DNA of 64,000 nt, taken from the NCBI GenBank assembly GCA_021735655.1, contig JAIPGM010000004.1, forward strand, positions 64,001 through 128,000. Direction: 5' to 3'. The position numbers were made by a program, and so were the translations under genes. The notes below the pieces were generated by a model that saw only the letters and a program-made list of their open reading frames with translations, did not search any database and was not told the DNA's origin. The DNA is from Candidatus Omnitrophota bacterium (GTDB lineage Bacteria; Omnitrophota; Gorgyraeia; Duberdicusellales; 4484-171). The first letter of the stretch is position 1. Each line of letters starts with the position of its first letter. Below, piece after piece: positions 24,962 through 45,371 of this stretch.

Positions 24962-25372
24962 TTAATGCCTTTCTCCCTCTCTAATATTCTTGCCTCGAGC
25001 CTTATAACTATTTACAATGCTATTATTAATAAACTCTTTCGCCTTCTCATCAATATTGACAAATTCGGTTGCAAGATCATATCCACCCATTTTCTTCAAA
25101 GCCCTGCTTCTTAAAACTTTAGCCACGACTTTAATTGAATCAACCCGTGGCGGAAAATTTATCTCTATTTCTACTATGTTGTTAACCGGAATATTTTCCT
25201 TGGCATGGAAGAGAACCCCGCCAGCACTTATATCTCTGGCAAAAGACAACTTTGACTGGCCATCAATGCTTTTATATTTCAATAAACAGTGCACTCGAAT
25301 CCTAGCAAAATTTCTATTTCTCTTCTTAAAAAATTTACTGGCCAATCTTGAAAAAAACAGCGACTTCATCAC
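24962..25372 (-). CDS. PilZ-domain c-di-GMP binding protein
   Basis: RNRNFARIRV (RxxxR) and DISAGGV (DxSxGG) motifs with the right spacing. Confidence 0.7.
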   Translation of the reverse strand: MMKSLFFSRLASKFFKKRNRNFARIRVHCLLKYKSIDGQSKLSFARDISAGGVLFHAKENIPVNNIVEIEINFPPRVDSIKVVAKVLRSRALKKMGGYDLATEFVNIDEKAKEFINNSIVNSYKARGKNIREGERH

Positions 25373-27155: not shown

Positions 27156-27572
27156 TTAGACATTGTCAACGAAATAGGCCTTTCGTTTCATTAAATAAAT
27201 TATTATTAATATATTAATTACTATACCTAAAACAACAATTAAATTTTCACCATTATGTCTAGTTGCCCTTAGGCCTTCTATTTTTAAAAACGCCGTCTTC
27301 TGATTGGCAATAAGAATGCCATTAATTAGAAAAATAATATGCAAAAACAAAGCAGCCACAAAGCCGCTTTTTTTAGCTTCCCTCATTGCTAAATAAAGAA
27401 ACCAAAATAAAATAAGAAAGTTAAAATGAATGATTTTGGCCAAAAAAGGGCTAACCGCTACTCCAAAAATCACCAGTTGGGTAGAAAAGACGAAAAGAGG
27501 TAGCCCGTAAAGGATACTTAAGCAGAGATAAAAATAACCGATGGTTCTTATTCCTAACTTCCTGTCTACCAA
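27156..27572 (-). CDS. hypothetical 4-TM membrane protein
   Basis: Hydrophobic 138-aa ORF. Confidence 0.4.
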   Translation of the reverse strand: MVDRKLGIRTIGYFYLCLSILYGLPLFVFSTQLVIFGVAVSPFLAKIIHFNFLILFWFLYLAMREAKKSGFVAALFLHIIFLINGILIANQKTAFLKIEGLRATRHNGENLIVVLGIVINILIIIYLMKRKAYFVDNV

Positions 27573-27862: not shown

Positions 27863-27892
27863 AGATACTACTCATTAAATTATTTTTATAGC

Positions 27893-29359
27893 TTAGGCCT
27901 CTGCTGGCCTATCACCCTTCCTTTTGTCTAAAACAAAACAGCTTCTTGGCTCATTCTTGGCTTTTTTCTTTACTTCAGCGGCAATATTAGTTACTTCGGC
28001 ATAAGATTCAATCGACCGGTGAGCATTAGTTATGCCGGCCAAAGATATGGTCATAATCGGAAACTGCTTTACTGAACCGTCCCGAGCATGAGCAACAATA
28101 TGCCCTCTTTCTAAATCTTCCTGATTGTACAAAGCTCTGACCTTCTCATCAAAGGTAGAAGTTATGTGATCGGCTAGATCTTGTGCTCTTTCCGGTTCAG
28201 TCACCAAAAGAAAGTCATCGCCGCCTTCATGCCCGATAAAATCCGTAGCGGCTCCCTTGGTTTTAACTGCCTCCTTAAATATACCCCCGGTTAACATGAT
28301 CGCTTCATCACCTTTATGAATTCCATACTTATCATTAAAAGCCTTAAAATTATCTAAATCGCAATAAATAACTGTAAATTTCTTACCCTCTTCAATTCTT
28401 CTAGTCACATCTTCCATAATTACGATGTTGCCAGGGAGCTTGGTAAGAGGATTCGCATCCTCTGCCTTTTCCTTCATTAAGGCTAATTCTTTAGTCATGG
28501 TATTAAAAGTATCAGCCAGCTCTTCGAGTTCATCATTAGTAGAGATTCTTACGCGCGAATCGAGTTGGCCAGAAGCAATGGTTTTAGCTGCCCGGTTAAA
28601 AACCCTTATTGGCCTGACTACTAAGCGGGATAAAAAAATGCCTAAAAAGATATTGGTTATTACCAACAACACTCCTACTATGATCGCCGGTTGATAAACT
28701 TTTTTTATGGCTAACCAGACGTCACCCAAAGGGAAAAAGGCTCGGACCACTAAGGGAATGCGTTTCTGGCTATCGGTGAGTGGAATATATACAGAAAATT
28801 GTTTTAAGCTCTTATTCACTACCGACTGGCCGCTAACCGTCTCGTTTCGTCTTAATTTCTTAATTATATCCAGATCATCATAATCGCCTTGAGCCCCGGA
28901 AAACCATTTCTCGGTTGAGAATACTATTTGGCCTTTTCTGTCCAAGATATAAGCTGCCTGCAAAGACTCTGCATTCTTTAGAAACTCCAAACCTTTGCCA
29001 AGATAGCCAATTCTTTCTTCAATTGGCAAATCAATACTTAGTTGTCGATTTAACAACCGTAGCCCTTTATTTACAGCTTTAATCTTTTCGCTGTCCGCTA
29101 TTGAAGATGCTAGAGTTTCACTTAACAATTGTAAACCCTTACCTAAGGCCTCTAGCTTGGTCTCTGCTCCTGATGAATTTAATACCTCAGTTAGTTTTTC
29201 TTCAATATGTAAAGAAGTTGTTTTTGCCTTATACTTTATCGACCCGTCAACCGTCCCCACTTCGTGAGCGAGCTGGATTACAAGAAACATACTAATAGTA
29301 ACTATGGTAAAAATCGTTACTATAAGAATGATTCTGGTTTTTAAACTAATAGCTTTCAT
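27893..29359 (-). CDS. membrane sensor with HAMP and GGDEF domain (GGDDF variant), putative diguanylate cyclase
   Basis: N-terminal TM, periplasmic domain, second TM, HAMP. GGDEF core reads YCDLDNFKAFNDKYGIHKGDEAI...IGHEGGDDFLLV. Confidence 0.7.
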   Translation of the reverse strand: MKAISLKTRIILIVTIFTIVTISMFLVIQLAHEVGTVDGSIKYKAKTTSLHIEEKLTEVLNSSGAETKLEALGKGLQLLSETLASSIADSEKIKAVNKGLRLLNRQLSIDLPIEERIGYLGKGLEFLKNAESLQAAYILDRKGQIVFSTEKWFSGAQGDYDDLDIIKKLRRNETVSGQSVVNKSLKQFSVYIPLTDSQKRIPLVVRAFFPLGDVWLAIKKVYQPAIIVGVLLVITNIFLGIFLSRLVVRPIRVFNRAAKTIASGQLDSRVRISTNDELEELADTFNTMTKELALMKEKAEDANPLTKLPGNIVIMEDVTRRIEEGKKFTVIYCDLDNFKAFNDKYGIHKGDEAIMLTGGIFKEAVKTKGAATDFIGHEGGDDFLLVTEPERAQDLADHITSTFDEKVRALYNQEDLERGHIVAHARDGSVKQFPIMTISLAGITNAHRSIESYAEVTNIAAEVKKKAKNEPRSCFVLDKRKGDRPAEA

Positions 29360-29640: not shown

Positions 29641-30321
29641 TTAGTAACCTTTAGCCTCAATATTTTGTTTTATGCCTCGGGCCATGATTTTAAAGTCAGT
29701 CAATAAAAGACGCCAAGCCGAAAACTCCATATATTTTTTGATATAGTCGTACTCCAAAACTAAATTATGTAAATCTGGTGTACCCTTACGAACATCCGTT
29801 TCGCTCCACAAAGCAGCCTTTAAAACTTTTTTATGCACATAGCCTTCTTGCAAAACATCCTGATAAACCTCCCAAGCAATAGCTCGTGTTCCAACAAAGG
29901 ACATATCGCCTTTAACGATATTGAAAAGTTGGGGAAGCTCATCTAAGTAAGCTTTTTTTAAAATTTTTCCCACCCGAGTTAATTTTTCGGGAAACTCTTC
30001 CGGATAAGCCGCAACATCATATTGCTCTCTTAAGCGTTTGTTGATAAAACGCATTTTAGTAATTCTAAATTTATACTTTATGAATTTTTTTCCTCGGTCT
30101 GAAGCAATATAGGAAGCTAAAATCCCGCCTCGATCGTCGGGATAAAAAAGATTATCAATTAGGTAGGCAAAAAATATCAGTAGAAAAACCGGCGAAGCAA
30201 ATAAAATCGCAATGACTGAAGCACAACGGTCAAATATCGCTTTACAAGGCCTAACCGGCAATGGCCCCTTTAAAGCAAAAATTTCTTTATAATTTTCTCG
30301 TAACTGCTCAACTTTTTCCAT
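29641..30321 (-). CDS. bacterial sugar transferase (PglC/WbaP-C-like phosphoglycosyltransferase), divergent paralog
   Basis: Re-entrant helix, KYKFRIT, LDELPQLFNIVKGDMSFVGTRA. The DE dyad is kept but the canonical PRP motif reads TRA. Confidence 0.65.
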   Translation of the reverse strand: MEKVEQLRENYKEIFALKGPLPVRPCKAIFDRCASVIAILFASPVFLLIFFAYLIDNLFYPDDRGGILASYIASDRGKKFIKYKFRITKMRFINKRLREQYDVAAYPEEFPEKLTRVGKILKKAYLDELPQLFNIVKGDMSFVGTRAIAWEVYQDVLQEGYVHKKVLKAALWSETDVRKGTPDLHNLVLEYDYIKKYMEFSAWRLLLTDFKIMARGIKQNIEAKGY

Positions 30322-30336
30322 ATAAATAACTTAAAA

Positions 30337-30978
30337 TTAATTAGGGTCGTTTAGTTGGCTTTCTATTTTGTTTTTAAGAGCTCCTCCTAAAAAACGAAAT
30401 TTATCGCCTTCTACTTCCCACTTGCTGTTAAACGTTACTAAAAATGATAGAAAAATAAGATAAAAATCTAAAAAAAAGGTCCGATTTTTTACATACCAGA
30501 TATCGTATTTAAACTTTTCGCGAAAATTAAGATAGTGAGAACCAAACACTTGAGCCACCCCGGTCAGTCCCGGCCTTATAGCATTTCGCTTAGTAAAATC
30601 GGGAAACTCCAGACAAAACTTTTTAACAAATTCCGGTCTTTCAGTCCGCGGGCCAACGAAACTCATATCTCCTTTTAAAATATTAATTAATTGCGGAAGC
30701 TCGTCTAAAGCCGACTTCCTTAGCCTTTTCCCGATCTTTGTACTTCTGGCATCATTTCCTAAGGATAGAGTTGGGCCAATATCCTTTTCAGCGTTAGGGA
30801 CCATTGAACGAAACTTAAGTATTTTGAATACTTTATTATCTTTGCCAATTCTGGCTTGAGAATAAAAAATAGGCCCGCCGTCTTCCACTTTAATCAATAA
30901 AGCAATGACAACCCCCAAGGGAAAAGCTAAGATTAAGCCAGTTAAGGAAAAAATAATATCGAATGATCGTTTAAGCAT
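30337..30978 (-). CDS. small monotopic phosphoglycosyltransferase (PglC-like, undecaprenyl/polyprenyl-phosphate sugar-1-phosphate transferase)
   Basis: KRSFDIIFSLTGLILAFPL...KFRSM...LDELPQLINILKGDMSFVGPRTERPEF are canonical motifs. Confidence 0.85.
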   Translation of the reverse strand: MLKRSFDIIFSLTGLILAFPLGVVIALLIKVEDGGPIFYSQARIGKDNKVFKILKFRSMVPNAEKDIGPTLSLGNDARSTKIGKRLRKSALDELPQLINILKGDMSFVGPRTERPEFVKKFCLEFPDFTKRNAIRPGLTGVAQVFGSHYLNFREKFKYDIWYVKNRTFFLDFYLIFLSFLVTFNSKWEVEGDKFRFLGGALKNKIESQLNDPN

Positions 30979-31028
30979 TTAAGTTAAGCCATAAATCTAA
31001 AAATTATTTCCGAAGGCATTTTACTATA

Positions 31029-32147
31029 TTACAATCTACATTTCAATATCTCTTCATACACCTGTTGGCTCTCGACCAGCATCCGATCTAAACTAAACTT
31101 TCTTAGGGCCCGTTGATAACCTGCTTCCCCCATATCTTTGCGCAATTTCTTATCTTCGATTAGCTTCTCTAAGGCTCCGGCTAAAGCCGCGGGGTCGCGC
31201 GGCGGGACTAAAAACCCGGTAACTGAATTTTTAACCAACTCACTCACTCCCCCGACATCTGTGGCTACTACTGGCAGCTTAGCTAACATTGCTTCAATGA
31301 TTGAGCGCGGAAGGCCTTCCCAATTCGAAGATAGCACAAAAATATCTGAAGCAACTAAAAACTCTTCCACCCGCTTTTGTTCGCCGACGAGCACCACCCG
31401 ATCAGCTAAATTACTCTTACCGATCATCCCTTGCACTTGCTGACGCAAAGGGCCATCACCAACAATAATTATTTTTGCTTTTGCGATAAGCTTTGCCGCT
31501 TTGATAAGAGTAGATAAATCTTTCTGAGGGTTTAGGCGGCCAACAAAAGTTATCACCGTGGCCTTCTCTAGTTTTAGCTCCTTTCGAATTTTCATTCTAT
31601 CAGCTTCGCCAATTGGGGCTGGATCTATGCCATTATGAATGATTGCCAGCTTGTTCGGCGGTGCGATTCTGAACTTAAGCGCTAGCCTATAGTCATACTC
31701 GGAAACGCAGATAATCTTAACTGTAGATTTAGCAGCTAAACGTTCAAGCCATGACAAAAACCAACGTTTCCCAAAAGAGCGTCCTTCGCCAAAACTCCAT
31801 CCATGAGCTGTAAAGATTACTGGCTTACGCTCCCAGGCTGCGCTAAGCCGCGCCGCCAACCCAGCTTTAGTGCTATGGCTGCTTATTATATCCGGCTTAA
31901 AAAACTTTATTGCCCGCCATACTGAAATTAAAGCCCTCAAATCGTGGTAAGGAGAAATAGGATAAATAAAATGGGGCTCGGGGAAAACTTTGGCTCCAAT
32001 AACTTTGGCCGCCTGCATTAAGCGCGGTTCGGGACCGGCAACTAAACCGACCCTACAACCCTTTGCGGCGAAATAACGCATTAAATGAACCACATGCTTA
32101 GTAGCCCCGCCAAAAGCAGCTGCTGTAGTAATATATAAAATCCTCAT
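31029..32147 (-). CDS. glycosyltransferase family 4
   Basis: EGLPRSIIEAMLAKLPVVATDVGG GT-B motif. Confidence 0.8.
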   Translation of the reverse strand: MRILYITTAAAFGGATKHVVHLMRYFAAKGCRVGLVAGPEPRLMQAAKVIGAKVFPEPHFIYPISPYHDLRALISVWRAIKFFKPDIISSHSTKAGLAARLSAAWERKPVIFTAHGWSFGEGRSFGKRWFLSWLERLAAKSTVKIICVSEYDYRLALKFRIAPPNKLAIIHNGIDPAPIGEADRMKIRKELKLEKATVITFVGRLNPQKDLSTLIKAAKLIAKAKIIIVGDGPLRQQVQGMIGKSNLADRVVLVGEQKRVEEFLVASDIFVLSSNWEGLPRSIIEAMLAKLPVVATDVGGVSELVKNSVTGFLVPPRDPAALAGALEKLIEDKKLRKDMGEAGYQRALRKFSLDRMLVESQQVYEEILKCRL

Positions 32148-32209
32148 CTGAAATCACCTTGCCGGCATTTTACTTGTTTTCGATTAATCTCTCTACGAAA
32201 AAATTACCC

Positions 32210-33343
32210 CTATGATGGCCCTAATCGTTCATACAATCTTTCATATTGCTCTAAGTTCCGACTCAAGGGAAAATTGTCCTTAATCCGCTGCCGGGCTGCT
32301 GTTCCCAGTTTTCGGCGGCCTTCCGAACCCAATTCTATAAGTTGCTGCCAAGCCTCGGTAAGCGCTTTTGGGTTTTTTGGCGGAACAACCAGTCCGGTCT
32401 CGCCAACCACAAAGGCTGAATCTCCCACATCGGTTGTGACACAAGGAGTGCCACAAGCCATGGCTTCCCCTAATACATTAGGAAATCCTTCTCCGCAGGA
32501 AGACGATAAAGTTACAATATCTAAACCTGACAATATTTGTGGTAAATCATTTCTTTCCCCTAATAGGTAAACCCGTTGCTGAAGACCCTTTTCAACAACC
32601 CATTGGAAAAGTTGTTTATTGCTTTCAGTGACCCTTGGCCCAATTAAAATGAAATAGACTGCCGGAACTTTTTTACTTAAACCTTCGGCAGCCTCAATAA
32701 AACCTCGCTGGTCCTTTTGGGGATGAAACCGGGCAACTAAACCTATTAACAGCGCCTCCTTGGAAAGTTTAAGTTCCTGAAGAAGCTTGGCTCGAGCCGA
32801 TAGATCGGGTTTAAACTCAACTAAATCGTAACCGTTAAAAATTACAACCATTTTGTCGCTACGGTAGCGATATTTAAGGTGTATTCGCCGGGTTTCTCGT
32901 GAGCAGCATACTATAACCTCAGGGACCCAACCTGACAGCAAAGCCCCGGCCTTTACTACCGATAAAGTGGTTTTTTTCACAAACCCTACACTGGTATCAC
33001 TATGATGCAGCCCCCAAATAACCGGGATTCCGCCGGCAAGCTTAGCGGCGATGCCTCCGATTAAATTCGCATGATACATCCAGGTTTGAACCAAGTCAAA
33101 CCGGCTGCGCTTCAAATAAACTATTAACTGGATTAGAGCTTTAAGGTCAGAAACTCTATAGCGCATGTTTAGGGCTTTTACATTTATACCTAAATTTTGG
33201 ATTTTTTCTCCGACCGGACCGAGCTCAGTTAAAGAAACAACTGAAACTTTATACTTTTCTTTATCCAAACCCAAAAGGAGCCGATACAATACCATCTCGG
33301 CACCACCAATATTTAGACCAGTTATAATATGACAGATTCTCAT
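32210..33343 (-). CDS. glycosyltransferase family 4
   Basis: EGFPNVLGEAMACGTPCVTTDVGD motif. Confidence 0.8.
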   Translation of the reverse strand: MRICHIITGLNIGGAEMVLYRLLLGLDKEKYKVSVVSLTELGPVGEKIQNLGINVKALNMRYRVSDLKALIQLIVYLKRSRFDLVQTWMYHANLIGGIAAKLAGGIPVIWGLHHSDTSVGFVKKTTLSVVKAGALLSGWVPEVIVCCSRETRRIHLKYRYRSDKMVVIFNGYDLVEFKPDLSARAKLLQELKLSKEALLIGLVARFHPQKDQRGFIEAAEGLSKKVPAVYFILIGPRVTESNKQLFQWVVEKGLQQRVYLLGERNDLPQILSGLDIVTLSSSCGEGFPNVLGEAMACGTPCVTTDVGDSAFVVGETGLVVPPKNPKALTEAWQQLIELGSEGRRKLGTAARQRIKDNFPLSRNLEQYERLYERLGPS

Positions 33344-33366
33344 TAAATTAACTGTCCCGTTTATTT

Positions 33367-34464
33367 TTAGCTCTTAAGCAGTTTAAAATATTCCCCAACA
33401 ACTGCCTCTCTAGTAAATATTTTTAACTCTTCGGCCTCAATACCTTTACCGGGTCGATCGAGTGTAGCAATAATCGCTGCGGCTAACCTCTCCCAATCAC
33501 CTACCGGAACTAGCTTTCCCAGCCGTCCGCCTTGTAATATTTCCCTAGAACCCCCCGGACTATCAGTAGCCACTACTGCTACCCCCAAAGCTAAGGCCTC
33601 AATCAAAACTGTGGGAAGCCCTTCCCAGGCTGAAGACAAAACAAATATTTTAGCTTTAGCCATCCAAGCATAAGGATTTTCAACAAACCCAGGCATCGCT
33701 ACGTCTGCCTCCAAGTTTAATTCCTTAATTAACTTTTCAAGGCTGCCGCGTTCCTCCCCCTCGCCTAAAATTATTAACCGAGCTGGGCGTTGCTCCAAAA
33801 TCCGTCTAAACGCTCGAAGCAGCGTCCCAAAATCCTTTTGCGCTGTTAGCCGGCCTACCGAAAGTAAAACTGGTATATCTTTTTCAATAAACCACTTGTG
33901 TTTAGGGTTATCCCTGCCTTTAGCTATAAGCTCTGAGGTAATAACTGGGTTAGGGATAATCTTAATTTGGCTTAACTTAGCCATGCCCAATTTAGCTATT
34001 TCCGCGGCGACAGCTTGCGATACTGCTACCACCGTCTGGGCTCGAAAATAAATTAGCTTAGCTAAAAATAAACCCACCCTATCCTTTAACCTGAATTGTT
34101 TTGACCGGCTGGCCAAAACCGTATTTTGAACTATAACGATAATTTTTGTATTCACTCTAGCAAACCAACCTGCCAAAATAGCTATGACATTAGCATGTCT
34201 CATAGCTGAAAGCAAACTCGCTGGCTGTTCTTTTTTAAGATATCCAACTAACCCTTTAAGGCTGGTTAAAACTCGTTGAGCCCCTAAATTTATTACTTTG
34301 ACCTCGGGTGGGATTTGAGATAGATAAGGGCCTTGGGCTTTAGCCAACACTATTTCTACAGTCAAGCCGCGTTCCTGCAACCCAATAGCTAAGTTAAGCA
34401 TCGCTCGTTCGGCTCCCCCACCACGCATTGAAGGCACAAAAATAGCTACCTTGTCTTTATTCAT
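33367..34464 (-). CDS. glycosyltransferase family 4
   Basis: EGLPTVLIEALALGVAVVATD motif. Confidence 0.8.
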   Translation of the reverse strand: MNKDKVAIFVPSMRGGGAERAMLNLAIGLQERGLTVEIVLAKAQGPYLSQIPPEVKVINLGAQRVLTSLKGLVGYLKKEQPASLLSAMRHANVIAILAGWFARVNTKIIVIVQNTVLASRSKQFRLKDRVGLFLAKLIYFRAQTVVAVSQAVAAEIAKLGMAKLSQIKIIPNPVITSELIAKGRDNPKHKWFIEKDIPVLLSVGRLTAQKDFGTLLRAFRRILEQRPARLIILGEGEERGSLEKLIKELNLEADVAMPGFVENPYAWMAKAKIFVLSSAWEGLPTVLIEALALGVAVVATDSPGGSREILQGGRLGKLVPVGDWERLAAAIIATLDRPGKGIEAEELKIFTREAVVGEYFKLLKS

Positions 34465-35588
34465 GGTTTTTTCGAATTAGCTCCAGACTGATAAACTTCA
34501 TCGACCACCCTTCGCCACATTTCTAAAATTCTTGAAGAGCCAAATCTTTCCAACACTTCTGGAGCACGCAAAGCCAATCGTTTCCTTTCATTCTCATCAC
34601 GCATCAGCTTAGCAATGGTTGTAGCTAAAGCCGCCACATTTTCTGGCGGTACCAACACTCCGTCAATTTTATCTCTGATAATTTCACTTGGCCCGCAGGG
34701 GCAATCAAAACTTACCACCGCCACCCCTTGAGCCATTGCTTCAAGAATGACCATCGGAAAACCCTCAAACCGCGATGACATTGCAAAAATGTCAGCCTGT
34801 TTTAAAATAGCTAGCGGGTTAGGAACTAGCCCTAACAAAAATATGCGATTTTTCAAATTTAATGAGCCGATCAACCTCTCTAGTTCCCCTTGCATCTGCC
34901 CTTGCCCTAAGATGACTAAGTTCCAATCAAGATTATTGGAAGAAACCTTGGCAAAACTCTCAATCAACAAATCAAACCCTTTTTGCCGAACCAGCCTCCC
35001 GATAGCAACTATTAATTTACCCTTGGGGAGCTTAACCTGATTAGAAATATTACTCCTTTCATCCTCAAGCCTGATCGGATTAGGGATTATGACTACCTGT
35101 TCACTAGCCAACCAATTAGTGAAATATTTTTTCATGCTTTTAGTTAGCACCACAACCCGGCTAGCCCAACGATAAGCAATTCTTCGCAATAAAATCAGCA
35201 TTCGTCTTCCCTGTTTTGAATCCATATGTTCTGAAACAATTACTGGGATCTTTGAACCAAACAAAGAAAATAAAGTTAGCACATTGGTCTTATCCATAAA
35301 ACTTACAACGACATCGGGGTTGCTTCTTTTTATTTCCCTGCGCAGCCGATAACTTCGACGCAGGCTCCTTATTACGGTTTGGAAAATATTATTTGATACA
35401 GACAATAAGCCAAGTGAACGCTGAGTTATTGTTTCATCTATTTTAAAAAAAGGTTTCCTGCCCCAATCCAAGGTAAGTAAAGTAACTGAATAGCCTTGCT
35501 TTGCAAAATAATTAGCCACCGTACTCATCACTCTTTCTGCTCCGCCGGCTGAAAGAGATGGGATAACAAAAGTTATACGTATCGCCAT
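34461..35588 (-). CDS. glycosyltransferase family 4
   Basis: EGFPMVILEAMAQGVAVVSFD motif; 4-nt overlap indicates translational coupling. Confidence 0.8.
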   Translation of the reverse strand: MAIRITFVIPSLSAGGAERVMSTVANYFAKQGYSVTLLTLDWGRKPFFKIDETITQRSLGLLSVSNNIFQTVIRSLRRSYRLRREIKRSNPDVVVSFMDKTNVLTLFSLFGSKIPVIVSEHMDSKQGRRMLILLRRIAYRWASRVVVLTKSMKKYFTNWLASEQVVIIPNPIRLEDERSNISNQVKLPKGKLIVAIGRLVRQKGFDLLIESFAKVSSNNLDWNLVILGQGQMQGELERLIGSLNLKNRIFLLGLVPNPLAILKQADIFAMSSRFEGFPMVILEAMAQGVAVVSFDCPCGPSEIIRDKIDGVLVPPENVAALATTIAKLMRDENERKRLALRAPEVLERFGSSRILEMWRRVVDEVYQSGANSKKP

Positions 35589-35639
35589 TTTTTAATCTTT
35601 AATCCTTACCCGTCCCCGATATTATAACTGCGCCTCTAA

Positions 35640-36908
35640 TTAATCCCTTAAACAAGAAACAAGAAATGAAGTAATCCGTCCATAAGTATCTTGGAAAGAA
35701 AACTTTTCTTCAATCTGTTTGCGGGCAAAAAGACTTTGTTTTTTGGCTTGTTCGGCCGAAGCTAAAAATTTGTTTACTGCTTCAGCTATCCCTTGATCAT
35801 TATTCTGAATAATTAGGCCCCGCTCATTATCTAAATTCATTCCATAAATTGCCTCATCAGTAGCTATAACCGGAACCCCCAAAGCCATGGCCTCGATAAC
35901 CCGGCTCCTAAAACCATAAGTTCCTTTTAAAGGACAGATCATAACCGTAGCTGAGGCTAGCGTCTCCTGAACTCGCTCAATAAATCCCGTTATCTTCACC
36001 CGGCTATCCCCGGCTAAAGCCTGCAGTTTATTTGAAGGCCTTGCCCCCACTAGCCATAGTTCGGCATCAGGAACCTTAGGCCAAACCAAGGGCATAATTC
36101 TATTGGCGCAACGTAAGGCAGCTTGCTCATTCTGCTCACCGGAAAGCGAACCATAAAAAATAATTCGTTGCGGTTTAGCCGGTTTCCAACAATATGGCCA
36201 CTCCGCCAAATCAACTCCCATGCCGGCAATTAGCGTAGAAATATTCTGAGGTATTTTTTGGCGAAGATACTCATCTTCAACATGGTTTATCGATATGATC
36301 TGGCTAAATTGTCGCCAGATTTTCTCTTCTATTGTACGATATCGTTTAATCAAAAATTTTTGGTAAAGCCTGCCCGGCCCCTTTCTACTCTTTCCGGCAT
36401 TATTAAAACTTCCTATCGCATCTATCTGAGCGGCCCGCCATTGCCAAAGAATATCATGCATATCCAAAACACAAGGGATACCCTTATTTTTAAAATAGCT
36501 TAATGATGCTGCGCTGTACCAATATTCGAAAAGAACAATAGCGAACTCATCGTTGTCAAGAGCCTTCTTCACTCTTTTCGGCGATAGATTAAGACTGCCT
36601 AGATAATAACTTTTTGGAATACCAAAAAGATAGCAGGCTAAACCAGATAAGGTACGATGTAGCGCCCGGGTAATGAAGTTTTTTGTGTAACAACTAGGCA
36701 AAATTATTACCCGTGAACATAGCGATTGTAAAACTTTTTTATCGGTAAGAATATCTCGTTGGTTACTAGTAGAAAGAAAAGTTATTTCAAATTTTTCCCG
36801 CGCAGCCCGCAAAATGTTAAAAATCCGCACTCGGCAACCCATTTCTAAAAGAGATAGGTTGGCGATTGGCGAAATCACTAAAAGTTTTGGCCGGCCGGTT
36901 TTTTTCAT
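35640..36908 (-). CDS. glycosyltransferase family 4
   Basis: GFRSRVIEAMALGVPVIATDEAIYG. Confidence 0.75.
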   Translation of the reverse strand: MKKTGRPKLLVISPIANLSLLEMGCRVRIFNILRAAREKFEITFLSTSNQRDILTDKKVLQSLCSRVIILPSCYTKNFITRALHRTLSGLACYLFGIPKSYYLGSLNLSPKRVKKALDNDEFAIVLFEYWYSAASLSYFKNKGIPCVLDMHDILWQWRAAQIDAIGSFNNAGKSRKGPGRLYQKFLIKRYRTIEEKIWRQFSQIISINHVEDEYLRQKIPQNISTLIAGMGVDLAEWPYCWKPAKPQRIIFYGSLSGEQNEQAALRCANRIMPLVWPKVPDAELWLVGARPSNKLQALAGDSRVKITGFIERVQETLASATVMICPLKGTYGFRSRVIEAMALGVPVIATDEAIYGMNLDNERGLIIQNNDQGIAEAVNKFLASAEQAKKQSLFARKQIEEKFSFQDTYGRITSFLVSCLRD

Positions 36909-37750
36909 TTTAGCTTTTTTAATTTTCGTCTAATTAAAGAAAATATCTTAAAAGGATTCCTAAAATAATAACTGATTCGCCGCACTTTAAATTTCCGAAA
37001 AAGGATATATTTAATCATTGTTAATACTCTTAAAGGGAAAGAAAGCTTTTGCCGGTGCCTTTCTAAAAGCTGATTATAATAAATATCATGCAACCCTTTT
37101 TCTTTAAGGGTTGTGGTTTTGGCCCCTTTAATTAACCGCAAATTCCCCCAAATCTCATCAATATACTTAACCTTGGCAACCAGCACCGCCCTAATAATAA
37201 AATCTATATCCATCATGTACGGGCCATAAGGCTCATCGGTCAAATACAGCCCTATTTTTTGGTGCAGCGATTTATGATAGAAGTATGCCGAAGGGTTCCA
37301 AGGAAAAGGCTCTTTTAAAGACAATAGGTCAGTTATCCCCATTTTTTTCGGTTTATTTATCTGTAAAATTTTACCTTCATCCCCCCAAACATTGCAATTA
37401 CCCACCAATAAACTAGGCTCGGGCAAATCTTTAAAAAGTTCTAATATCTGATTTAAAACACCGGGCTCATAAAAATCATCTACATTCAAAGAGCTGATTA
37501 TTTCCCCTTTAGACATGGCCAAACCCTTATTCAAAGCCTGCGACTGCCCTTGGTCTTTTTCGGAAACCCACCTAATATGCCGATAGCGCTTGGCATATTT
37601 ACTGATAATTGCTACGGTCTTATCGGTTGATCCGCCATCAATAAGCAGATGCTCTGCTTCCGGGCATTTCTGTTCGATCACATTTTCTAAACAGCCCTGG
37701 ATAAACCGCTCACCATTATAAACTGGGGTAATGACGCTAATCATAGTCAA
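36905..37750 (-). CDS. glycosyltransferase family 2
   Basis: ISVITPVYNGERFI...LLIDGGSTD...NVDDFY (DxD). Confidence 0.8.
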   Translation of the reverse strand: MTMISVITPVYNGERFIQGCLENVIEQKCPEAEHLLIDGGSTDKTVAIISKYAKRYRHIRWVSEKDQGQSQALNKGLAMSKGEIISSLNVDDFYEPGVLNQILELFKDLPEPSLLVGNCNVWGDEGKILQINKPKKMGITDLLSLKEPFPWNPSAYFYHKSLHQKIGLYLTDEPYGPYMMDIDFIIRAVLVAKVKYIDEIWGNLRLIKGAKTTTLKEKGLHDIYYNQLLERHRQKLSFPLRVLTMIKYILFRKFKVRRISYYFRNPFKIFSLIRRKLKKLK

Positions 37751-39024
37751 AAATTCTTTTCCGGTTTTCCTATTATTTCTTGATATAGATTTATGTAGTG
37801 TGCTACCTGATTCTTAAGGGCGTATTTCTTCTCTACTCTTTCCCTAGCGTGATGTCCGAGCCTTTGACGCTCCTGAGGGTGATTTATCAGCCAAGCTATT
37901 TTTGCGGCTAGCTCTTGGCTATTTTTTACCTCAGCCCAAAGCCCAGTTTCGTTTGGTACCATTATTTCGTTAATCCCCCCAATATTAAAGGCTACCGCTG
38001 GAATGCCGCAAGCCATTGATTCTAACAACAATAGACCAAAAGCCTCCTCTAAAGAGGGGATCACTACTACATCAGCGGCACTATAAACATTGGCTAGACT
38101 TTCTTCATCATAAAAATACCCCAATTGATAAATAGCTAAATCACTTCTTCTTAATTTATCCTCTATATCTTGTTTGGCGCCAAAAATAACTAAGGCTAGT
38201 TTGGAGGTATTAATTTTCTGCCCTAATATACTTAAAGCCTCCACTAAATATTGGAAGCCTTTGTTTTTACTCTTGTAATCTGCTCCGAATAAAATAATAG
38301 TTTTATCTTGAGGCAGCCCCAATAAATTCCTCGATTTAAACCGATCCTTCTTAATAAATACATTAATAGGGACTCCGTGGGGAATAACTTTTATCGGGCA
38401 GTCTTTAAAAAGTTGGCTTTGCCTAGCTTGTTCGGCAAGCCAAAAGCTGGGAGCAACAATATTAATATTGGCCTTCTCTAAAACCTTTTTCTTTCTTTCC
38501 AATATTTTCCGGGAAAGGTCTCTGTTTTTCCTTGAACCCAGCTGAGGACAATATCCACAACCAATCTCATATTTGTTACACCCCTCAAGACAATGGCACC
38601 CGCCGGTAAAAGGATTGTGATCGTGCAGCGTCCAAACTATCGGTTTAGGCCCTAAATTTAGAAAAAAATCTTTATAGTCGACCATTTTTACTACCCAATG
38701 CAAGTTAATAACCTCTGCCTCACGCACCACTGGCTGCCTTTTTAGCCGATAGATTGACCGCTCATTACTAAAGATTAATTCCTCTTTTTGCTTTCGCTGT
38801 TGGCCCTTAATCTCTCTAAAAATCAGTTTTTTCTTGATTTTGTTTTTAAACCGAGTAACTAAACTATCGCTTTCAGTTAGTTCAACAACATCACAATCCT
38901 GCGATGAGCGGCGCAAAACTAACATTTTAGAATCTACCTTTGCCTGTTTTAAACCACAATGAATTCTATAGGCTGCTTTGCCGGCCCCGCCAGAATCATA
39001 AGTACTTAAATGAAGAGTTTTCAT
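37747..39024 (-). CDS. glycosyltransferase family 4 with N-terminal extension
   Basis: EEAFGLLLLESMACGIPAVAFNIGG. Confidence 0.75.
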   Translation of the reverse strand: MKTLHLSTYDSGGAGKAAYRIHCGLKQAKVDSKMLVLRRSSQDCDVVELTESDSLVTRFKNKIKKKLIFREIKGQQRKQKEELIFSNERSIYRLKRQPVVREAEVINLHWVVKMVDYKDFFLNLGPKPIVWTLHDHNPFTGGCHCLEGCNKYEIGCGYCPQLGSRKNRDLSRKILERKKKVLEKANINIVAPSFWLAEQARQSQLFKDCPIKVIPHGVPINVFIKKDRFKSRNLLGLPQDKTIILFGADYKSKNKGFQYLVEALSILGQKINTSKLALVIFGAKQDIEDKLRRSDLAIYQLGYFYDEESLANVYSAADVVVIPSLEEAFGLLLLESMACGIPAVAFNIGGINEIMVPNETGLWAEVKNSQELAAKIAWLINHPQERQRLGHHARERVEKKYALKNQVAHYINLYQEIIGKPEKNF

Positions 39025-40112
39025 ATCAGTTGTTTTTTGATTGTTCGCCTTATTGCCCTTTTTAGTCTATTAATAAACCCCCATAATTTAAAAAACTTTT
39101 TTCCTAGCCAATACCTTGGCGAACCCAAAAGGTGCTCAATATCATCAACCTTTCGCCTCTCTACTTGGATTATTCCTTCATTTACATCTTTTATCATTTT
39201 TTTAATTTCTGGCGGATGTTGGCCGGAAAATCGTTCCAGCCAAGCCGGATAGTTATAAACATTATGCACTCGATAGCCGCTTTCTAAACCCAAAAATATT
39301 TTTTGGTACCACTCTTGGAATCCTTTAAGTTGCGCCCATTTAGCTTGGTCGTAATACCGGCTTTTATCCAAGACTTGTTTGGGGAAAACTAGCGAATAAT
39401 GGTACAAAAAAATACCTTTCTTAATTAAGCTGTCTCCGTTGACCCATTTCAAGTTACGTAAATCCACACCTTCTGGATTGCAAACCGTTGGCGGCCGATG
39501 GTCAATATATCTATAGCCCGGCCCCCATTTAAATAAGCGATGATACCTTTGGGCCCAATATTTAGCAGGCTTTTCACGAAACAACCATCCATCAACCACA
39601 TAATCAAATCCACCAAAAAAAGTTATCTGTTTAAAAGAAACAGCGGTGATCTTCGAATCGCTGCGCAGCATTTCTAATATCGCCTGCATGTCTTGGGGTT
39701 TATAAAACTCATCTACATCAACCTGCCAAAGATAATTTCCCGTTGCCCGTTGCGCATAGGCTTGCGACATTTCCTCTTTTTCGCTCCAAAATCCTTTAGC
39801 TGTAATGATCTCGATTTTGTTATCGGGGTCTTCCTCCTGTTTAAACCGCTGGAGTACATCAAGTGTCCCATCAACTGAATGTCCGTTAGCTGTGGCTAGA
39901 TCTGCTGCCGCGCGAACCGCGCCCTCTACCACAATGATTTGATGAGCGAAAGGATATAAAGACCGTAAACAGTAGCGTGTAAACGGCTCTCCGTTAAACA
40001 CGATCAGGCCAAAAGTGATTTTCGGATAATTACTCATTTTTCGCCAAGGTAACCGCAGCAAAAGTAATACCGAAAGGTGTCCAAAGCATGAATAACTGCC
40101 AGGGAGTAACAA
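39021..40112 (-). CDS. putative GT2-like glycosyltransferase
   Basis: ITFGLIVFNGEPF N-terminal Rossmann-like start and VDVDEF DxD-like motif. Divergent. Confidence 0.4.
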   Translation of the reverse strand: MLLPGSYSCFGHLSVLLLLRLPWRKMSNYPKITFGLIVFNGEPFTRYCLRSLYPFAHQIIVVEGAVRAAADLATANGHSVDGTLDVLQRFKQEEDPDNKIEIITAKGFWSEKEEMSQAYAQRATGNYLWQVDVDEFYKPQDMQAILEMLRSDSKITAVSFKQITFFGGFDYVVDGWLFREKPAKYWAQRYHRLFKWGPGYRYIDHRPPTVCNPEGVDLRNLKWVNGDSLIKKGIFLYHYSLVFPKQVLDKSRYYDQAKWAQLKGFQEWYQKIFLGLESGYRVHNVYNYPAWLERFSGQHPPEIKKMIKDVNEGIIQVERRKVDDIEHLLGSPRYWLGKKFFKLWGFINRLKRAIRRTIKKQLI

Positions 40113-41469
40113 AAAATGTAGAAGAGGTAATACTTACCAAAGACAAAGCAACCACACAAGCTATTCCGCTGAAAGCTAAGGTTTGACAACCAGCATCGCT
40201 AGAATGCAAAGCCCGAAGATAGGCCTTTGTGAACCGGACAAAAATCCAAATAAAACCAATAAATCCGATGATCCCAAAAGAAAGCCATAAATATAAATAG
40301 GTGTTATGGGCAAACCAAGTATAGACATAGCCATATTTTTGGAATCCCTCCAGGCCCACACCAAAAAAAGGATGCTCCAAAGCTACCAAAGCCGACTCTT
40401 GCCACCGCCAAATGCGGTCAGCTAATCCGGGTGCTTGGCTGGGGTCGTTCAAAACTTCTAAGACGCGCTGTTGAGCCCGCGCCCCCAAAGAAAACTTAGC
40501 GTAATACCAAAAACCAAAAAATAAGGCAAATGCCGGTAAGCCTATCTTCCATAAAGTTCCGGCAAAGCTTGCCGGAGAGTGTTTCTTTACTTTCAAAGCC
40601 AATACAGCCAACACCACTGTAGAAATTCCGGTTGCAATTAACGCCATTCTTCCCTGGGACTTGATAATTATTAAAGCCGCTACCAACATAATTCCGGCAG
40701 CCGCTAGGCGCTTCCCAAAAGACCGGTCGTTTAACCAGAGATTGAATGCTAATATCGCTACAAAAGCATAGCTAATCGGGGTGACTTCAGCCCCCATAAA
40801 TAAAGAGTCACACAAAGGTAGATTAATTATCTTCATCAAGCGCTCGCTGCCGATAACTGAGGCGCTCATAAGTTCCTGCTCATAACTAGCTAGCTGCGGC
40901 GCATAAAGAAAAACTAAACCCAGCAATCCAGCTGAAATTAAAAAACACCAAAGCAGGCGCTCGGCTTGTTTAATATTTCTAATTAACCAAAAACATAAAA
41001 AACAAAACAACGGCGGCAGAAAGCACACCGTTCGAATCACGATAAGCGAATATTCGCCTTTGTACTCAGCTGATATGTAAGCGAGTAAAGCACCGATAAC
41101 AAATAGCGTAAAAGGTAAAAAAGGAAAACCGCCTCGGGTAGGGATAGATGGGACCTTCTTAGAAACACTGCCAAGAAGCAGTCCGAGAATAATTAGCCCC
41201 CAGATAACTAGTTCAGTTGGATAGACCCGGGTCAATGCCGGAGAGAAACTCTGTAACCTTGAGTCCAAAGGCAGCCAATAGACAAAGACCGCCACGCACA
41301 AAAAGGGAAACAAGCCGATCCTTTTAATCAAATAAAGACTACCGGCCAAGCCGCCAAGCCCCAAAATCAAATATAAAAACCTTAGATTTTGAGAAACAAT
41401 TGCCTGGCTGATTATGACTGCGGCACCTACCAAAGCAAAAAAGAATATTAGTTTTTTTATTCTCGCCAT
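40030..41469 (-). CDS. Wzy/O-antigen-ligase-family membrane protein (second copy in window)
   Basis: At least 11 TM helices. WFAHNTYLYLWLSFGIIG Wzy_C-type motif. The listed start overlaps the upstream gene by 83 nt, so the real start is probably later. Confidence 0.65.
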   Translation of the reverse strand: MARIKKLIFFFALVGAAVIISQAIVSQNLRFLYLILGLGGLAGSLYLIKRIGLFPFLCVAVFVYWLPLDSRLQSFSPALTRVYPTELVIWGLIILGLLLGSVSKKVPSIPTRGGFPFLPFTLFVIGALLAYISAEYKGEYSLIVIRTVCFLPPLFCFLCFWLIRNIKQAERLLWCFLISAGLLGLVFLYAPQLASYEQELMSASVIGSERLMKIINLPLCDSLFMGAEVTPISYAFVAILAFNLWLNDRSFGKRLAAAGIMLVAALIIIKSQGRMALIATGISTVVLAVLALKVKKHSPASFAGTLWKIGLPAFALFFGFWYYAKFSLGARAQQRVLEVLNDPSQAPGLADRIWRWQESALVALEHPFFGVGLEGFQKYGYVYTWFAHNTYLYLWLSFGIIGFIGFIWIFVRFTKAYLRALHSSDAGCQTLAFSGIACVVALSLVSITSSTFFVTPWQLFMLWTPFGITFAAVTLAKNE

Positions 41470-41485
41470 CTCTTAAGCCGCCCTT

Positions 41486-43300
41486 TCAATAAAACTTTTG
41501 CTCTTCCCAATATTGGTAAAACTTACCTTTCTTCTTAAGGAGCTCGGTTAAATCCCCCTCCTCTATGAATCGACCATCCTCGATTACCACGATCTTATCG
41601 GCATTCTTTATCGTAGAAAGCCTATGAGCAATAGTTATCGCAGTTTTCCCTTTAACCATCTGCTCAACCGCCTCCTGTATAAGCCGTTCGGTATGTGTGT
41701 CAAGAGAGCTGGTAGCTTCGTCTAAAATTAAAATCTCAGACCTTCTAAGCACTGCTCGCGCGATAGAAACTCTCTGCTTTTCCCCGCCTGAAAGCTGGAC
41801 CCCCCTATCTCCTACCAAGCTATCCAAGCCCTTCGATGCTTTCAAAATAACTTCGTGCAATCTTGCCTTTTTGGCAACAACCATTATTTCTTCTTCCGAG
41901 CATTCTCTATCTAAGCCATAGGTAATGTTATTTCTAAGGGTATCATTAAAAAGTGCTGAGTCTTGACTTACCAGGGCTATTTGCCCTCTCAACGATTCCA
42001 CTGTAAACTCTCTTATATCGGTGCCGTCGATAAAAATTGTTGAAGGTGGGCAATCGTAAAAACGTAAAATCAAACTGATAAGCGTGGTTTTCCCGGCTCC
42101 GGTCGAACCAACTATCGCAGTCATTTTTCCCTTTTCGACCGAAAAACTAACATCTTTTAATGTTTGTATTCCTTTTTTATAAAAAAAGTTTAGATGCCTA
42201 AAATCTATGCTTTCGTTTAATTGTTTAAACTCTTTTCGGCCGCCGTTTACAAAAAATTTATTTTTATCGTCAAAAACCTTTAATATGCTCCTCATCGGGC
42301 CTTCTATATTAGCTAAAGAAACTCTAAACAAACCTAGCCCTTTTGAGTAGGTAAAAATCCTCTTGATAATAACGATGTACACCGCAAAGATTGCTACATC
42401 CCCTGACTGTTTTTTTACGATCAAAAAGGCGGTGGCAGCGATAAATAATAAGAGCATTACTAAGGCAATAATTTCATGAACCAAAGGCACTAAATAACGC
42501 TTTCTATCAACATTAAATTCCAGCTCTTCTATGGCATCGCTGGCCTTACTGAAACGATGTTCCTCCTTCTTCTCTGCAACACAGGCTTTAACTAAAAGCA
42601 TATTAGATAATATATTGAAAATACTTTGGCCCAAAACCGTATGGGCACCGGCCCAAACAACTGAACTTTTTTTGATCTTATCAATAAGCCATTGCGAAGA
42701 ATAAAATACCAGGGGAAAAACAAGCATTGCGAAAATTGTCAACTTCCAAGAAATCATCACCATTATAATAATGTATACAACAAGCATAAGTATCAAAATG
42801 CATGAATTTTCTAAAATCATGAGCTGACTCGAAATTTTGTTGGTAAAACCGATGAGCACCTGGTTAAGACTCCCTGTGCTGTTAAGGTCGAAATGCTTTT
42901 TCCCAAAACCAAGGTAGCGCTTGAAGATATTTTTTCTTAATTGATTGGAAAACTTCCTTACCTGACGAGCTATGCCAACGGCGGATAGATATTGAAAAAT
43001 GTTTTTTGCGACTGCTGTCGTCGCAATCATGACCAAAAGCAAGATAAATAATGAAGTATTTGTTGCGCTAAGCGAATCTGGAATTTGTTCAATAATATTT
43101 TTTAGAATGGGGACTTCTCTGACAAAGATAAAATCTGCTTTAATGATTCCCCTTACCGTGGGGATTAAAAGCGTTATACTAAGACCCTCAAACAGCGCTG
43201 CCCCTAAAGCTAAAACTACCGGAAAAATAAAATGCGACAACTTTACATCTATTCTGTGAAAGAATTTTATTAACCGTACAAGATTCAAATACAGTTTCAT
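41486..43300 (-). CDS. ABC exporter, fused permease-ATPase (MsbA/PglK-like lipid or lipid-linked-oligosaccharide flippase family)
   Basis: 6 TM helices plus NBD; Walker A GSTGAGKTT, signature LSGGEKQRVSIARA, Walker B ILILDEATS. Confidence 0.85.
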   Translation of the reverse strand: MKLYLNLVRLIKFFHRIDVKLSHFIFPVVLALGAALFEGLSITLLIPTVRGIIKADFIFVREVPILKNIIEQIPDSLSATNTSLFILLLVMIATTAVAKNIFQYLSAVGIARQVRKFSNQLRKNIFKRYLGFGKKHFDLNSTGSLNQVLIGFTNKISSQLMILENSCILILMLVVYIIIMVMISWKLTIFAMLVFPLVFYSSQWLIDKIKKSSVVWAGAHTVLGQSIFNILSNMLLVKACVAEKKEEHRFSKASDAIEELEFNVDRKRYLVPLVHEIIALVMLLLFIAATAFLIVKKQSGDVAIFAVYIVIIKRIFTYSKGLGLFRVSLANIEGPMRSILKVFDDKNKFFVNGGRKEFKQLNESIDFRHLNFFYKKGIQTLKDVSFSVEKGKMTAIVGSTGAGKTTLISLILRFYDCPPSTIFIDGTDIREFTVESLRGQIALVSQDSALFNDTLRNNITYGLDRECSEEEIMVVAKKARLHEVILKASKGLDSLVGDRGVQLSGGEKQRVSIARAVLRRSEILILDEATSSLDTHTERLIQEAVEQMVKGKTAITIAHRLSTIKNADKIVVIEDGRFIEEGDLTELLKKKGKFYQYWEEQKFY

Positions 43301-44880: not shown

Positions 44881-44918
44881 AACCTCTACTCTTATTGATT
44901 GTTGTTTTTTTCCGATAT

Positions 44919-45359: not shown

Positions 45360-45371
45360 CTTAACTCTGCC

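Follow-up and report, generated by a model that had tools for sequence, protein, structure and literature searches.

Serotype-variable Wzy/Wzc capsule and exopolysaccharide (EPS) loci, such as those of E. coli group 1 and the pneumococcal cps loci, are marked by a conserved frame of initiation, export, and regulation genes around a swappable glycosyltransferase (GT) cassette that carries its own Wzy-family gene. Helicobacter pylori Wzk provides a precedent for an ABC flippase that replaces Wzx (PMC2841628), and a composite translocon of an OPX protein and a beta-barrel has been published for Myxococcus (PMC9601211, PMC9603273). We found no literature specific to oligosaccharyltransferases (OSTs), pilus glycosylation, or EPS loci in Omnitrophota. 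Here, we analyzed 64,000 nucleotides (nt) from a Candidatus Omnitrophota bacterium (contig JAIPGM010000004.1, positions 64,001 to 128,000), hereafter the window, in which a 13-gene operon-like array on the minus strand (29641-43300) had been flagged as a counterpart of the Campylobacter pgl pathway for protein N-glycosylation. Comparison with related loci indicates that this operon (43300-29641 in the direction of transcription) is probably the variable repeat-unit block of a conserved Omnitrophota capsule/EPS super-locus (approximately 19.5 to 44.9 kb) and that the OST, at a distance of 27 kb, is part of a separate module linked to the pilus.

We scanned every window open reading frame (ORF) of at least 90 amino acids (aa) with Pfam and NCBIfam and compared the window proteins pairwise with those of homologous loci (L097 and L098/L009). 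The relevant genes are all encoded on the minus strand of the window. In L097, whose Wzc is 64% identical to that of the window, the gene order is Alg14, Alg13-like, B12-radical SAM enzyme, GT2, a divergent phosphoglycosyltransferase (PGT) paralog, PGT, HAMP-GGDEF, small protein, TPR, PilZ, BBP2_2, Wzc, Wzy_C, and TPR; DUF212, YkuD, AccA, and PadR lie further along, and GGDEF/GAF later. L097 is collinear with the window over 10 to 31 kb, and its GT block differs. L098 (Wzc 51% identical) overlaps the tail of L009, one of the ABC contexts described below, with 100% identity over 292 nt. Read together, L009 and L098 begin with sugar-nucleotide genes, GT34, ABC, GT2, GT4, GT4, radical SAM, GT4, GT9, methyltransferase, Wzy_C, and radical SAM and continue with PGT, a geranylgeranyl-reductase-family protein, HAMP-GGDEF, TPR, PilZ, BBP2_2, a short Poly_export gene, Wzc, Wzy_C, and TPR, after which unrelated genes follow.

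Across the three lineages, a frame composed of ABC, PGT (with its divergent paralog), HAMP-GGDEF, TPR, PilZ, BBP2_2, Wzc, a second Wzy_C, and TPR is conserved at 27 to 67% identity. Identity to the window protein is 50% for ABC, 42 to 50% for the PGT (L097, L098), 67% (L097) and 51% (L098) for HAMP-GGDEF, which keeps its position, 38 to 56% for the first TPR protein, 45 to 53% for PilZ, 27 to 58% for the BBP2_2 barrel directly upstream of Wzc, 51 to 64% for Wzc, 43 to 53% for the Wzy_C beside Wzc, and 59% for the geranylgeranyl-reductase-like protein (L098). The GTs reach only a generic 23 to 31%, and the Wzy_C inside the operon has no ortholog; the GT set and the in-operon Wzy_C are replaced from genome to genome. 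Serotype-variable Wzy/Wzc capsule/EPS loci are recognized by such a combination of a conserved frame with a swappable GT/Wzy_C cassette, and the contiguity of the PGT block with the Wzc block in three lineages argues for one system.

In the window, the export and regulation part of the frame comprises a pair of genes at 27156-29359 and a six-gene block at 19531-27133. In order of transcription, these encode a HAMP-GGDEF diguanylate cyclase (27893..29359), a small polytopic membrane protein (27156..27572; 138 aa, four to five hydrophobic segments, no Pfam match), a 586-aa TPR protein (25373..27133), a PilZ receptor for cyclic di-GMP (c-di-GMP) (24962..25372; PF07238, 42 bits), a BBP2_2 outer-membrane beta-barrel (23722..24954; PF10082, with a weak match to TIGR03016), a Wzc-type polysaccharide co-polymerase (PCP) with a BY-kinase domain (21879..23720), a Wzy_C protein, here Wzy_C_b (20560..21882), and a TPR protein that closes the frame (19531..20559), with orthologs of approximately 30% identity in the same position. 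The small membrane protein has a 50% identical ortholog in L097, likewise between HAMP-GGDEF and TPR. Wzc combines Wzz, GNVR, and AAA_31 domains, scores 164 bits against TIGR01007 (above the cutoff of 108), and ends in the tyrosine cluster YYFYHYSY; its family is also conserved in Omnitrophota. Two features of the Wzy/Wzc pathway are in place, namely an initiating PGT with a GT block and a PCP-2a Wzc with BY-kinase domain and tyrosine tail. A short Poly_export (OPX) gene lies between the barrel and Wzc in L098 (9098-9943), in an arrangement that matches the composite OPX/beta-barrel translocon; the window (21879-24954) and L097 have none. The initial annotation had described Wzc, the barrel, and two Wzy_C proteins as we found them and had proposed that the glycan might be shared between an EPS/capsule route and protein N-glycosylation. 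Given that the operon adjoins this Wzc, Wzy_C, and outer-membrane barrel export module, the EPS/capsule route becomes the main story.

The flagged operon is, as had been proposed, a real operon for assembly of a polyprenyl-phosphate-linked glycan. Its order of transcription is ABC half-transporter, Wzy_C, a marginal GT2, GT4, GT2, four GT4s, a further GT4, PGT, and the divergent PGT paralog, with genes that overlap or are separated by 15- to 62-nt spacers. ATGA-type 4-nt overlaps occur at 34461-64, 36905-08, and 39021-24; an overlap at 37747-50 needs a TTG start, and an alternative ATG sits 2 nt past the stop. A promoter and terminator scan of 27 to 44 kb returned counts close to those of shuffled sequence and is uninformative on the operon borders. 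Seven GT4 and two GT2 enzymes joined by 4-nt overlaps had been reported; we count six GT4s and two GT2s, the second of them marginal, and the overlaps are confined to some of the junctions.

From upstream to downstream, the GTs are a GT2-like protein of 338 aa counted from the ATG at 40037 (39021..40037; PF00535 at a marginal 23.8 bits, cutoff 23.3), whose start codon overlaps the Wzy_C stop by 8 nt; GT4f (37747..39024; PF00534, 111 bits), which has an ATGA overlap with the gene upstream; GT2a (36905..37750; PF00535, 92 bits), with a likely start MISVITPVYNG at 37744; the stp1-like GT4e (35640..36908; PF13692, 82 bits; TIGR03087, 134 bits, under cutoff); GT4d (34461..35588; PF00534, 149 bits); GT4c (33367..34464; PF00534, 122 bits), joined to GT4d by an ATGA overlap; and two stp2-like enzymes, GT4b (32210..33343; PF13692, 101 bits) and GT4a (31029..32147; PF00534, 152 bits), which score 175 and 181 bits against TIGR03088, both under cutoff. 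The top NCBIfam model is PglH for GT4d (190 bits, cutoff 600; PglJ follows at 131 bits) and PglJ for GT4c (130 bits, cutoff 500). These matches of adjacent, overlapping genes are a weak hint of alpha-1,4-HexNAc chemistry and not of membership in a pgl pathway.

Both PGTs called in the initial annotation, a PglC-type monotopic enzyme and a divergent paralog, belong to the Bac_transf family (PF02397) and have one hydrophobic segment each. The canonical enzyme (30337..30978; 213 aa, one transmembrane segment, 209 bits) is the presumed initiating PGT. It is nearest to the EPS_sugtrans (259 bits) and WcaJ (220 bits) catalytic-domain models and carries the DELPQL Asp-Glu dyad and the KFR, PRxxRP, and GLTGVAQ motifs. 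The paralog, which is the last gene of the operon (29641..30321; 226 aa, 86 bits), retains the DELPQL dyad and lacks PRxxRP and GLTGxAQ; its substrate or role may therefore differ. Relatives keep it: the L097 copy (3163-3840) is 45% identical and forms a tandem with the canonical PGT, and L011 has a similar protein (9001-9690) beside its ABC ortholog. Both PGTs also match the HepC model, below its cutoff of 140.

The operon is headed by an ABC half-transporter of 604 aa with fused transmembrane and nucleotide-binding domains (41486..43300; PF00664 and PF00005). We placed it by scores against curated hidden Markov models. HepA_fam_ABC is its top model (462 bits, cutoff 725), with a full-length alignment over residues 9-601, ahead of MsbA (TIGR02203, 373 bits, cutoff 602; PRK11176, 319 bits, cutoff 867) and PglK (194 bits, cutoff 1000); no cutoff is reached. 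Four tested orthologs rank HepA_fam, MsbA, and PglK identically, with 462 to 478 bits for HepA_fam (window protein included) and 396 to 418 bits for MsbA. In a PDB search, MsbA was the best half-transporter and PglK fell outside the top 60. Thus, the fused ABC exporter that had been annotated as MsbA/PglK-like is present, and its likeness to PglK does not hold at the sequence level. The family is large, with 2,259 matches at an E value of ≤1e-50. Among the best 120 of these, identity is 43 to 73%, and every source name that states an organism gives Omnitrophota or Omnitrophica.

All six ABC-ortholog contexts lie inside GT clusters, with different GT content every time and with a Wzy_C within 10 kb in four; none of the six contains a MOP flippase or an OST. 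The window likewise has no MOP, Wzx, or MATE Pfam match in any scanned ORF, as had been reported, and, apart from the OST and the two Wzy_C proteins, it encodes no protein with 10 or more transmembrane segments. Wzx was absent from every ortholog context examined (the ABC contexts, L097, and L098). Judging from these gene neighborhoods, the ABC half-transporter apparently takes the position of Wzx as flippase of the lipid-linked repeat unit. Conservation of this protein alongside a changing glycan is in keeping with a flippase of relaxed specificity, such as H. pylori Wzk.

From the gene families observed here, their order, their packing on one strand, and their pattern of conservation, we infer a pathway in which the small PGT would prime polyprenyl phosphate and up to eight GTs (six GT4s and two GT2s) would assemble an oligosaccharide unit at the cytoplasmic face. 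A dimer of the conserved ABC half-transporter would flip this unit in place of the missing Wzx, by analogy with Wzk and PglK, which tolerate varied glycans. The variable in-operon Wzy_C_a (40030..41469; PF04932, 45 bits; 12 hydrophobic segments), which has no detectable ortholog in L009, L012, or L097/L098, is the proposed repeat-unit polymerase and would act with Wzc as co-polymerase. The polymer would exit through the BBP2_2 barrel as outer-membrane conduit, with an OPX protein encoded elsewhere. The conserved Wzy_C_b (PF04932, 64 bits; 13 hydrophobic segments), which adjoins Wzc, is a candidate ligase or conserved partner and may ligate glycan to an acceptor. Output would be gated by c-di-GMP through the diguanylate cyclase and the PilZ protein encoded in the locus. 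On this interpretation, it is a Wzy/Wzc-type locus with a conserved ABC half-transporter in the place of Wzx and a built-in c-di-GMP module, conserved across Omnitrophota.

Several points weigh against the capsule/EPS interpretation. Two parts of the Wzy/Wzc pathway, Wzx (MOP) and OPX (Wza), have no match in the window; for OPX, we found neither a Poly_export match nor a homolog of the L098 protein among six-frame window ORFs, and the gene for a Wzx may lie in another part of the genome. No curated cutoff is reached by the ABC protein, whose second-best family is MsbA, so its substrate could be lipid A or another lipid. Both Wzy_C proteins carry an H-N-x9-G-x-x-G ligase-type motif, which makes it a matter of inference which one polymerizes; neither matched a PDB sequence at E<1, and sequence does not separate polymerase, ligase, and O-oligosaccharyltransferase (O-OTase). 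The cluster of L011 has LpxC/FabZ and LpxA as neighbors, an arrangement also compatible with an O-antigen role.

Overall, the analysis replaces a superficial analogy to pgl with a defined, Omnitrophota-wide polysaccharide locus architecture, in which a conserved frame for export and regulation is combined with a swappable GT cassette and with an ABC half-transporter in the position expected for Wzx. Should the ABC protein indeed flip repeat units in a Wzy/Wzc pathway, it would clearly exemplify a single flippase of relaxed specificity that serves many serotypes. Such a case would bear on glycoengineering and on the way in which the specificity of Wzx limits capsule diversity.

The remaining question is whether the OST takes part in this pathway. 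The initial annotation placed it correctly in a pilin locus: the STT3/AglB-like OST (657..3203; minus strand; PF02516, 130 bits) lies between two pilin genes (3328-3777 and 211-669) in a type IV pilus operon. We treat it as context to the polysaccharide system and, at most, as a possible secondary consumer of the lipid-linked unit. AccA, YkuD, UbiA, and other genes separate it from the flagged operon. Its ExD, GWFD, TVSEL, and WWDYG motifs are conserved, so it looks catalytically competent as far as motifs can tell. It scores 27 bits against the NCBIfam PglB model (cutoff 1300), and a PDB sequence search matched fragments of STT3A, STT3B, and AglB, with PglB not found at E<0.01.

We compared this OST with a family sample of 7 genome loci and 80 metagenome loci. 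The family occurs in Omnitrophota and in one Margulisiibacteriota (loci L005, L008, and L014-L093). Clade A, at 45 to 70% identity, consists of the window, L002/L014, L003/L018, L004, and L099. Its OST always lies between pilins, in the order GGDEF/GAF, MshEN, PilB, PilB, PilC, pilin, OST, pilin, and PilM to PilQ, and this synteny is kept in L002, L003, L004, L014, and L099; no glycan or donor genes adjoin clade-A OSTs. Clade B is 31 to 39% identical to the window OST. In 59 of the 75 clade-B loci that have a downstream gene, a highly conserved GT2 of approximately 384 aa directly follows the OST, and its top NCBIfam match is archaeal AglJ (159 bits). AglJ is an enzyme of archaeal N-glycosylation. 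Further followers are a PMT_2 GT-C (33 loci) and an HpnJ-like B12-radical SAM enzyme (31 loci), and at least 16 loci have pilin genes upstream of the OST, often as a full type IV pilus operon. The clade-B OST and its AglJ-like partners look like an archaeal-style agl module wired to bacterial pili. None of these partners (AglJ-like GT2, PMT_2, B12-radical SAM) has a window homolog at E<1. We considered and rejected orthology between the window GT4s and the GT4s that follow clade-B OSTs in L030, L059, and L036, where the similarity is generic (45 to 73 bits).

The OST and polysaccharide modules hardly overlap. None of the 80 metagenome OST loci has an ABC ortholog (best score 278 bits, versus approximately 600 for orthologs) or a Wzy_C; a PGT and a Wzc-like gene occur once each. 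We found no homologs of the geranylgeranyl reductase, the sulfotransferase, UbiA, DUF212, or the small membrane protein near OST loci. The ABC and Wzc orthologs of other Omnitrophota occupy polysaccharide loci of the same kind, and no OST lies within 10 kb of them in six of the seven genomes with contexts examined; the seventh, L097/L099, is the window's syntenic close relative. Both in the window and in L097/L099, the two modules are 25 to 27 kb apart, a spacing that reflects ordinary synteny of close relatives. Across deep divergence (31 to 70% identity), type IV pilus operons contain or adjoin the OST genes of this family. On this comparison of loci, the linkage of OST and pilus is old, and the OST and polysaccharide modules have independent histories. 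With almost no overlap between the modules, the OST was not relocated from the polysaccharide locus, contrary to what had been suggested; the usual neighbors of the OST family are the AglJ-like GT2, PMT_2, and the B12-radical SAM enzyme and never the PGT/ABC/Wzy_C set.

An unlikely alternative keeps the EPS/capsule locus and adds that the STT3-type OST of the pilus operon also takes single flipped units and attaches them to Asn of the major pilin. Unlike the 59 of 75 clade-B loci noted above, clade-A OSTs have no adjacent donor genes, so they must borrow a lipid-linked glycan from elsewhere, and the flagged operon is the only PGT-initiated pathway in the window. An N97-G-T sequon is kept in pilinA of the window, L099, and L002, in a DNTNGT context without D/E at position -2. 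The EPS locus and the pilus/OST operon stay approximately 25 kb apart in L097/L099, c-di-GMP components occur in both, and there is a precedent for a pilin glycosylated with O-antigen units (bioRxiv 10.1101/150227). Against this, the family-wide counts are 0 ABC orthologs, 0 Wzy_C proteins, and 1 PGT in 80 loci, the L098 lineage has the locus without a nearby OST, and the proximity in the window is ordinary synteny with housekeeping AccA, YkuD, and UbiA in between. Moreover, the conserved OST partner is AglJ-like, best matching enzymes that glycosylate dolichyl phosphate and not sugar-phosphate transferases, which suggests a differently initiated donor and lowers the odds of an EPS unit in that role. 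The more specific proposal that the ABC-flipped capsule repeat unit doubles as N-glycan donor for pilin N97-G-T, making the STT3/AglB-like OST an N-linked counterpart of TfpO/PilO and a case of bacterial N-glycosylation outside the PglB clade, strikes us as quite improbable. Nothing ties the polysaccharide locus specifically to the OST, though it is possible that the locus could lend the OST its sugar units.

Pilin sequons vary within clade A. In L004, N-X-S/T is absent from both pilins beside the OST, which is itself divided between two ORFs, and the L003 pilins have three to four sequons each. The pilus operon of the window (5193-10380) encodes two MshEN-domain PilB ATPases along with a stand-alone MshEN protein and, at its head, a GGDEF/GAF protein; c-di-GMP may control pilus assembly as well as the EPS locus. 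The more unusual biology of the window is this pilus-embedded STT3-type OST family with its AglJ-like partners.

We also weighed an assignment to lipopolysaccharide (LPS), in which the ABC protein would be MsbA or a Wzk-like O-antigen flippase, the GTs would build O-antigen or outer core, one Wzy_C would be WaaL, and the Wzc module would be separate. MsbA's rank as second-best family match and best PDB half-transporter is consistent with such a role, as are the ligase-type motif of both Wzy_C proteins, the GT9 (heptosyltransferase family) in L009, LpxC/FabZ and LpxA beside the L011 cluster, and the precedent of the H. pylori Wzk/WaaL pathway (PMC2841628). The MsbA scores (373 to 418 bits) nevertheless stay below the cutoff of 602, the HepA family is ahead in every ortholog, and the PGT and Wzc blocks are contiguous in three lineages, arguing for one system. 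PCPs with a BY-kinase domain are typical of capsule/EPS and not of O-antigen chain-length control, and the Wzc here is of this type. We give the LPS assignment very little credence. The initial annotation had named a nearby Wzx and WaaL with a clear MsbA ortholog as the finding that would favor an ordinary O-antigen/EPS locus unrelated to the OST; the window has no Wzx, and the MsbA cutoffs are not reached.

The proposal from which the work began, a dedicated pgl-like N-glycosylation pathway (PglC, GT4 extenders, PglK, PglB) whose OST moved into the pilin locus, is extremely improbable: superfamily-level parts (small PGT, GT4s, GT2, ABC half-transporter, STT3 OST) do share the same 64 kb, GT4d and GT4c have PglH and PglJ as top NCBIfam matches, and the window lacks Wzx, but equivalog scores are far under cutoff (PglB 27/1300, PglK 194/1000, PglH 190/600, PglJ 130/500, PglI 36/500), genes of the DegT, dehydratase, and acetyltransferase types that would make a bacillosamine-type sugar (PglD/E/F) are absent from the window (no DegT_DnrJ_EryC1, Polysacc_synt_2/Epimerase, or Hexapep match in any window ORF), a Wzy_C lies inside the operon, the Wzc export module is joined to the locus in three lineages, the locus occurs without the OST and the OST family without the locus, and the OST-pilus linkage is old, with no relocation. 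The parts list does not mirror Campylobacter in kind either, with a PGT nearest to EPS/WcaJ-type enzymes, an ABC protein nearest to HepA/MsbA, and an OST nearest to STT3A/AglB.

The rest of the window frames the capsule/EPS super-locus. Type IV pilus genes occupy 211-12497 (minus strand), with the OST between two pilins followed by PilC, two MshEN-type PilB ATPases, the stand-alone MshEN protein, the GGDEF/GAF protein, and minor pilins. The interval 12598-18521 holds mainly housekeeping genes (PadR, AccA, YkuD/LysM, DUF212, and UbiA) and three ORFs without a Pfam match. Beyond the ABC gene, 43753-48866 encodes a geranylgeranyl-reductase-family flavoprotein, DUF192, a sulfotransferase, and a spermine-synthase/M28 fusion. 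The FAD-dependent reductase (43753..44880; minus strand; FAD_binding_3/Lycopene_cycl) scores 158.3 bits against TIGR02032 (GG-red-SF), just below the cutoff of 158.8; its L098 ortholog sits between PGT and HAMP-GGDEF. It is a probable accessory gene of the polysaccharide locus and, going by its family, may saturate the polyprenyl carrier to give a dolichol-like lipid. The sulfotransferase gene (45372-46250) precedes the ABC gene by 2 kb on its upstream side. Among the ABC-ortholog contexts, two (L011 and L095) contain PAPS-reductase-family and CysN-like genes, one of them with an arylsulfotransferase-family gene; the glycans made by these loci may be sulfated. The protein encoded at 46452-48866 has 804 aa, approximately seven hydrophobic segments, and a spermine/spermidine-synthase-like domain fused to an M28 peptidase domain. 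Mobile and restriction-modification-type genes lie beyond 50 kb; this mobile-element/defense-type block (50871-63808) includes a Vsr endonuclease, a Dcm-type C5 methylase, RadC, a YhcG PDDEXK nuclease, an NrS-1-type primase-polymerase, and several ORFs without a family match.

Set beside described systems, the locus shares features with several. With the XrtA/PEP-CTERM EPS system, it has weak matches in common (stp1/stp2 GT4s, a PrsT-like TPR protein, the TIGR03016 outer-membrane protein, and the pepcterm tyrosine-kinase and chain-length models), but all are under cutoff, and the window has no exosortase match, EpsI, or PEP-CTERM proteins. With Campylobacter jejuni pgl, it shares a small PglC-like PGT architecture, GT4/GT2 extenders, an ABC half-transporter, and an STT3-family OST in the genome; it differs in having no PglD/E/F, reaching no pgl equivalog cutoff, containing Wzy_C and Wzc, placing its STT3/AglB-like OST in a pilus operon 27 kb off, and carrying a GT block that is hypervariable between relatives. 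Like the Pseudomonas aeruginosa group I TfpO/PilO gene, the OST gene lies by a pilin without donor genes of its own (bioRxiv 10.1101/150227), though the borrowing of a donor from a surface-polysaccharide locus elsewhere, as in the P. aeruginosa system, would here be hypothetical. TfpO is a Wzy_C-family O-OTase that acts on a C-terminal Ser, whereas the window enzyme is of the STT3 type and presumably N-linking, as judged from its sequence.

The polysaccharide genes themselves find closer parallels. For Anabaena hepA/hepC, which serve the heterocyst envelope polysaccharide, the likeness is that HepA_fam_ABC is the top model for the ABC protein and its four orthologs and that both PGTs match HepC; the scores are under the cutoffs of 725 and 140, the phylum is another, and the mechanism of HepA is itself not established. 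The H. pylori Wzk/WaaL pathway (PMC2841628) shares, at the level of gene content, cytoplasmic assembly of a lipid-linked glycan, a fused ABC exporter for Wzx, and a Wzy_C-family protein downstream. That pathway uses WecA, has no Wzy polymerase and no Wzc, and has scattered genes, in contrast to the Bac_transf PGT and the single locus with Wzc found here, and the window ABC protein is nearer to the HepA/MsbA models than to the PglK model. With the Wzx/Wzy/Wzc capsule/EPS loci (E. coli group 1/colanic acid; Myxococcus EPS/BPS/MASC), the locus has in common a WcaJ/WbaP-type PGT catalytic domain, a variable GT block that includes a Wzy-family protein of its own, a conserved Wzc BY-kinase ending in a tyrosine tail, and an outer-membrane beta-barrel adjoining the PCP, along with a short OPX in the relative L098. 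It differs from them in that the window and the sampled homologous loci have no Wzx, the window has no OPX or Wzb, a conserved ABC half-transporter heads the operon, HAMP-GGDEF, PilZ, and TPR proteins are part of the conserved frame, and a second conserved Wzy_C stands beside Wzc.

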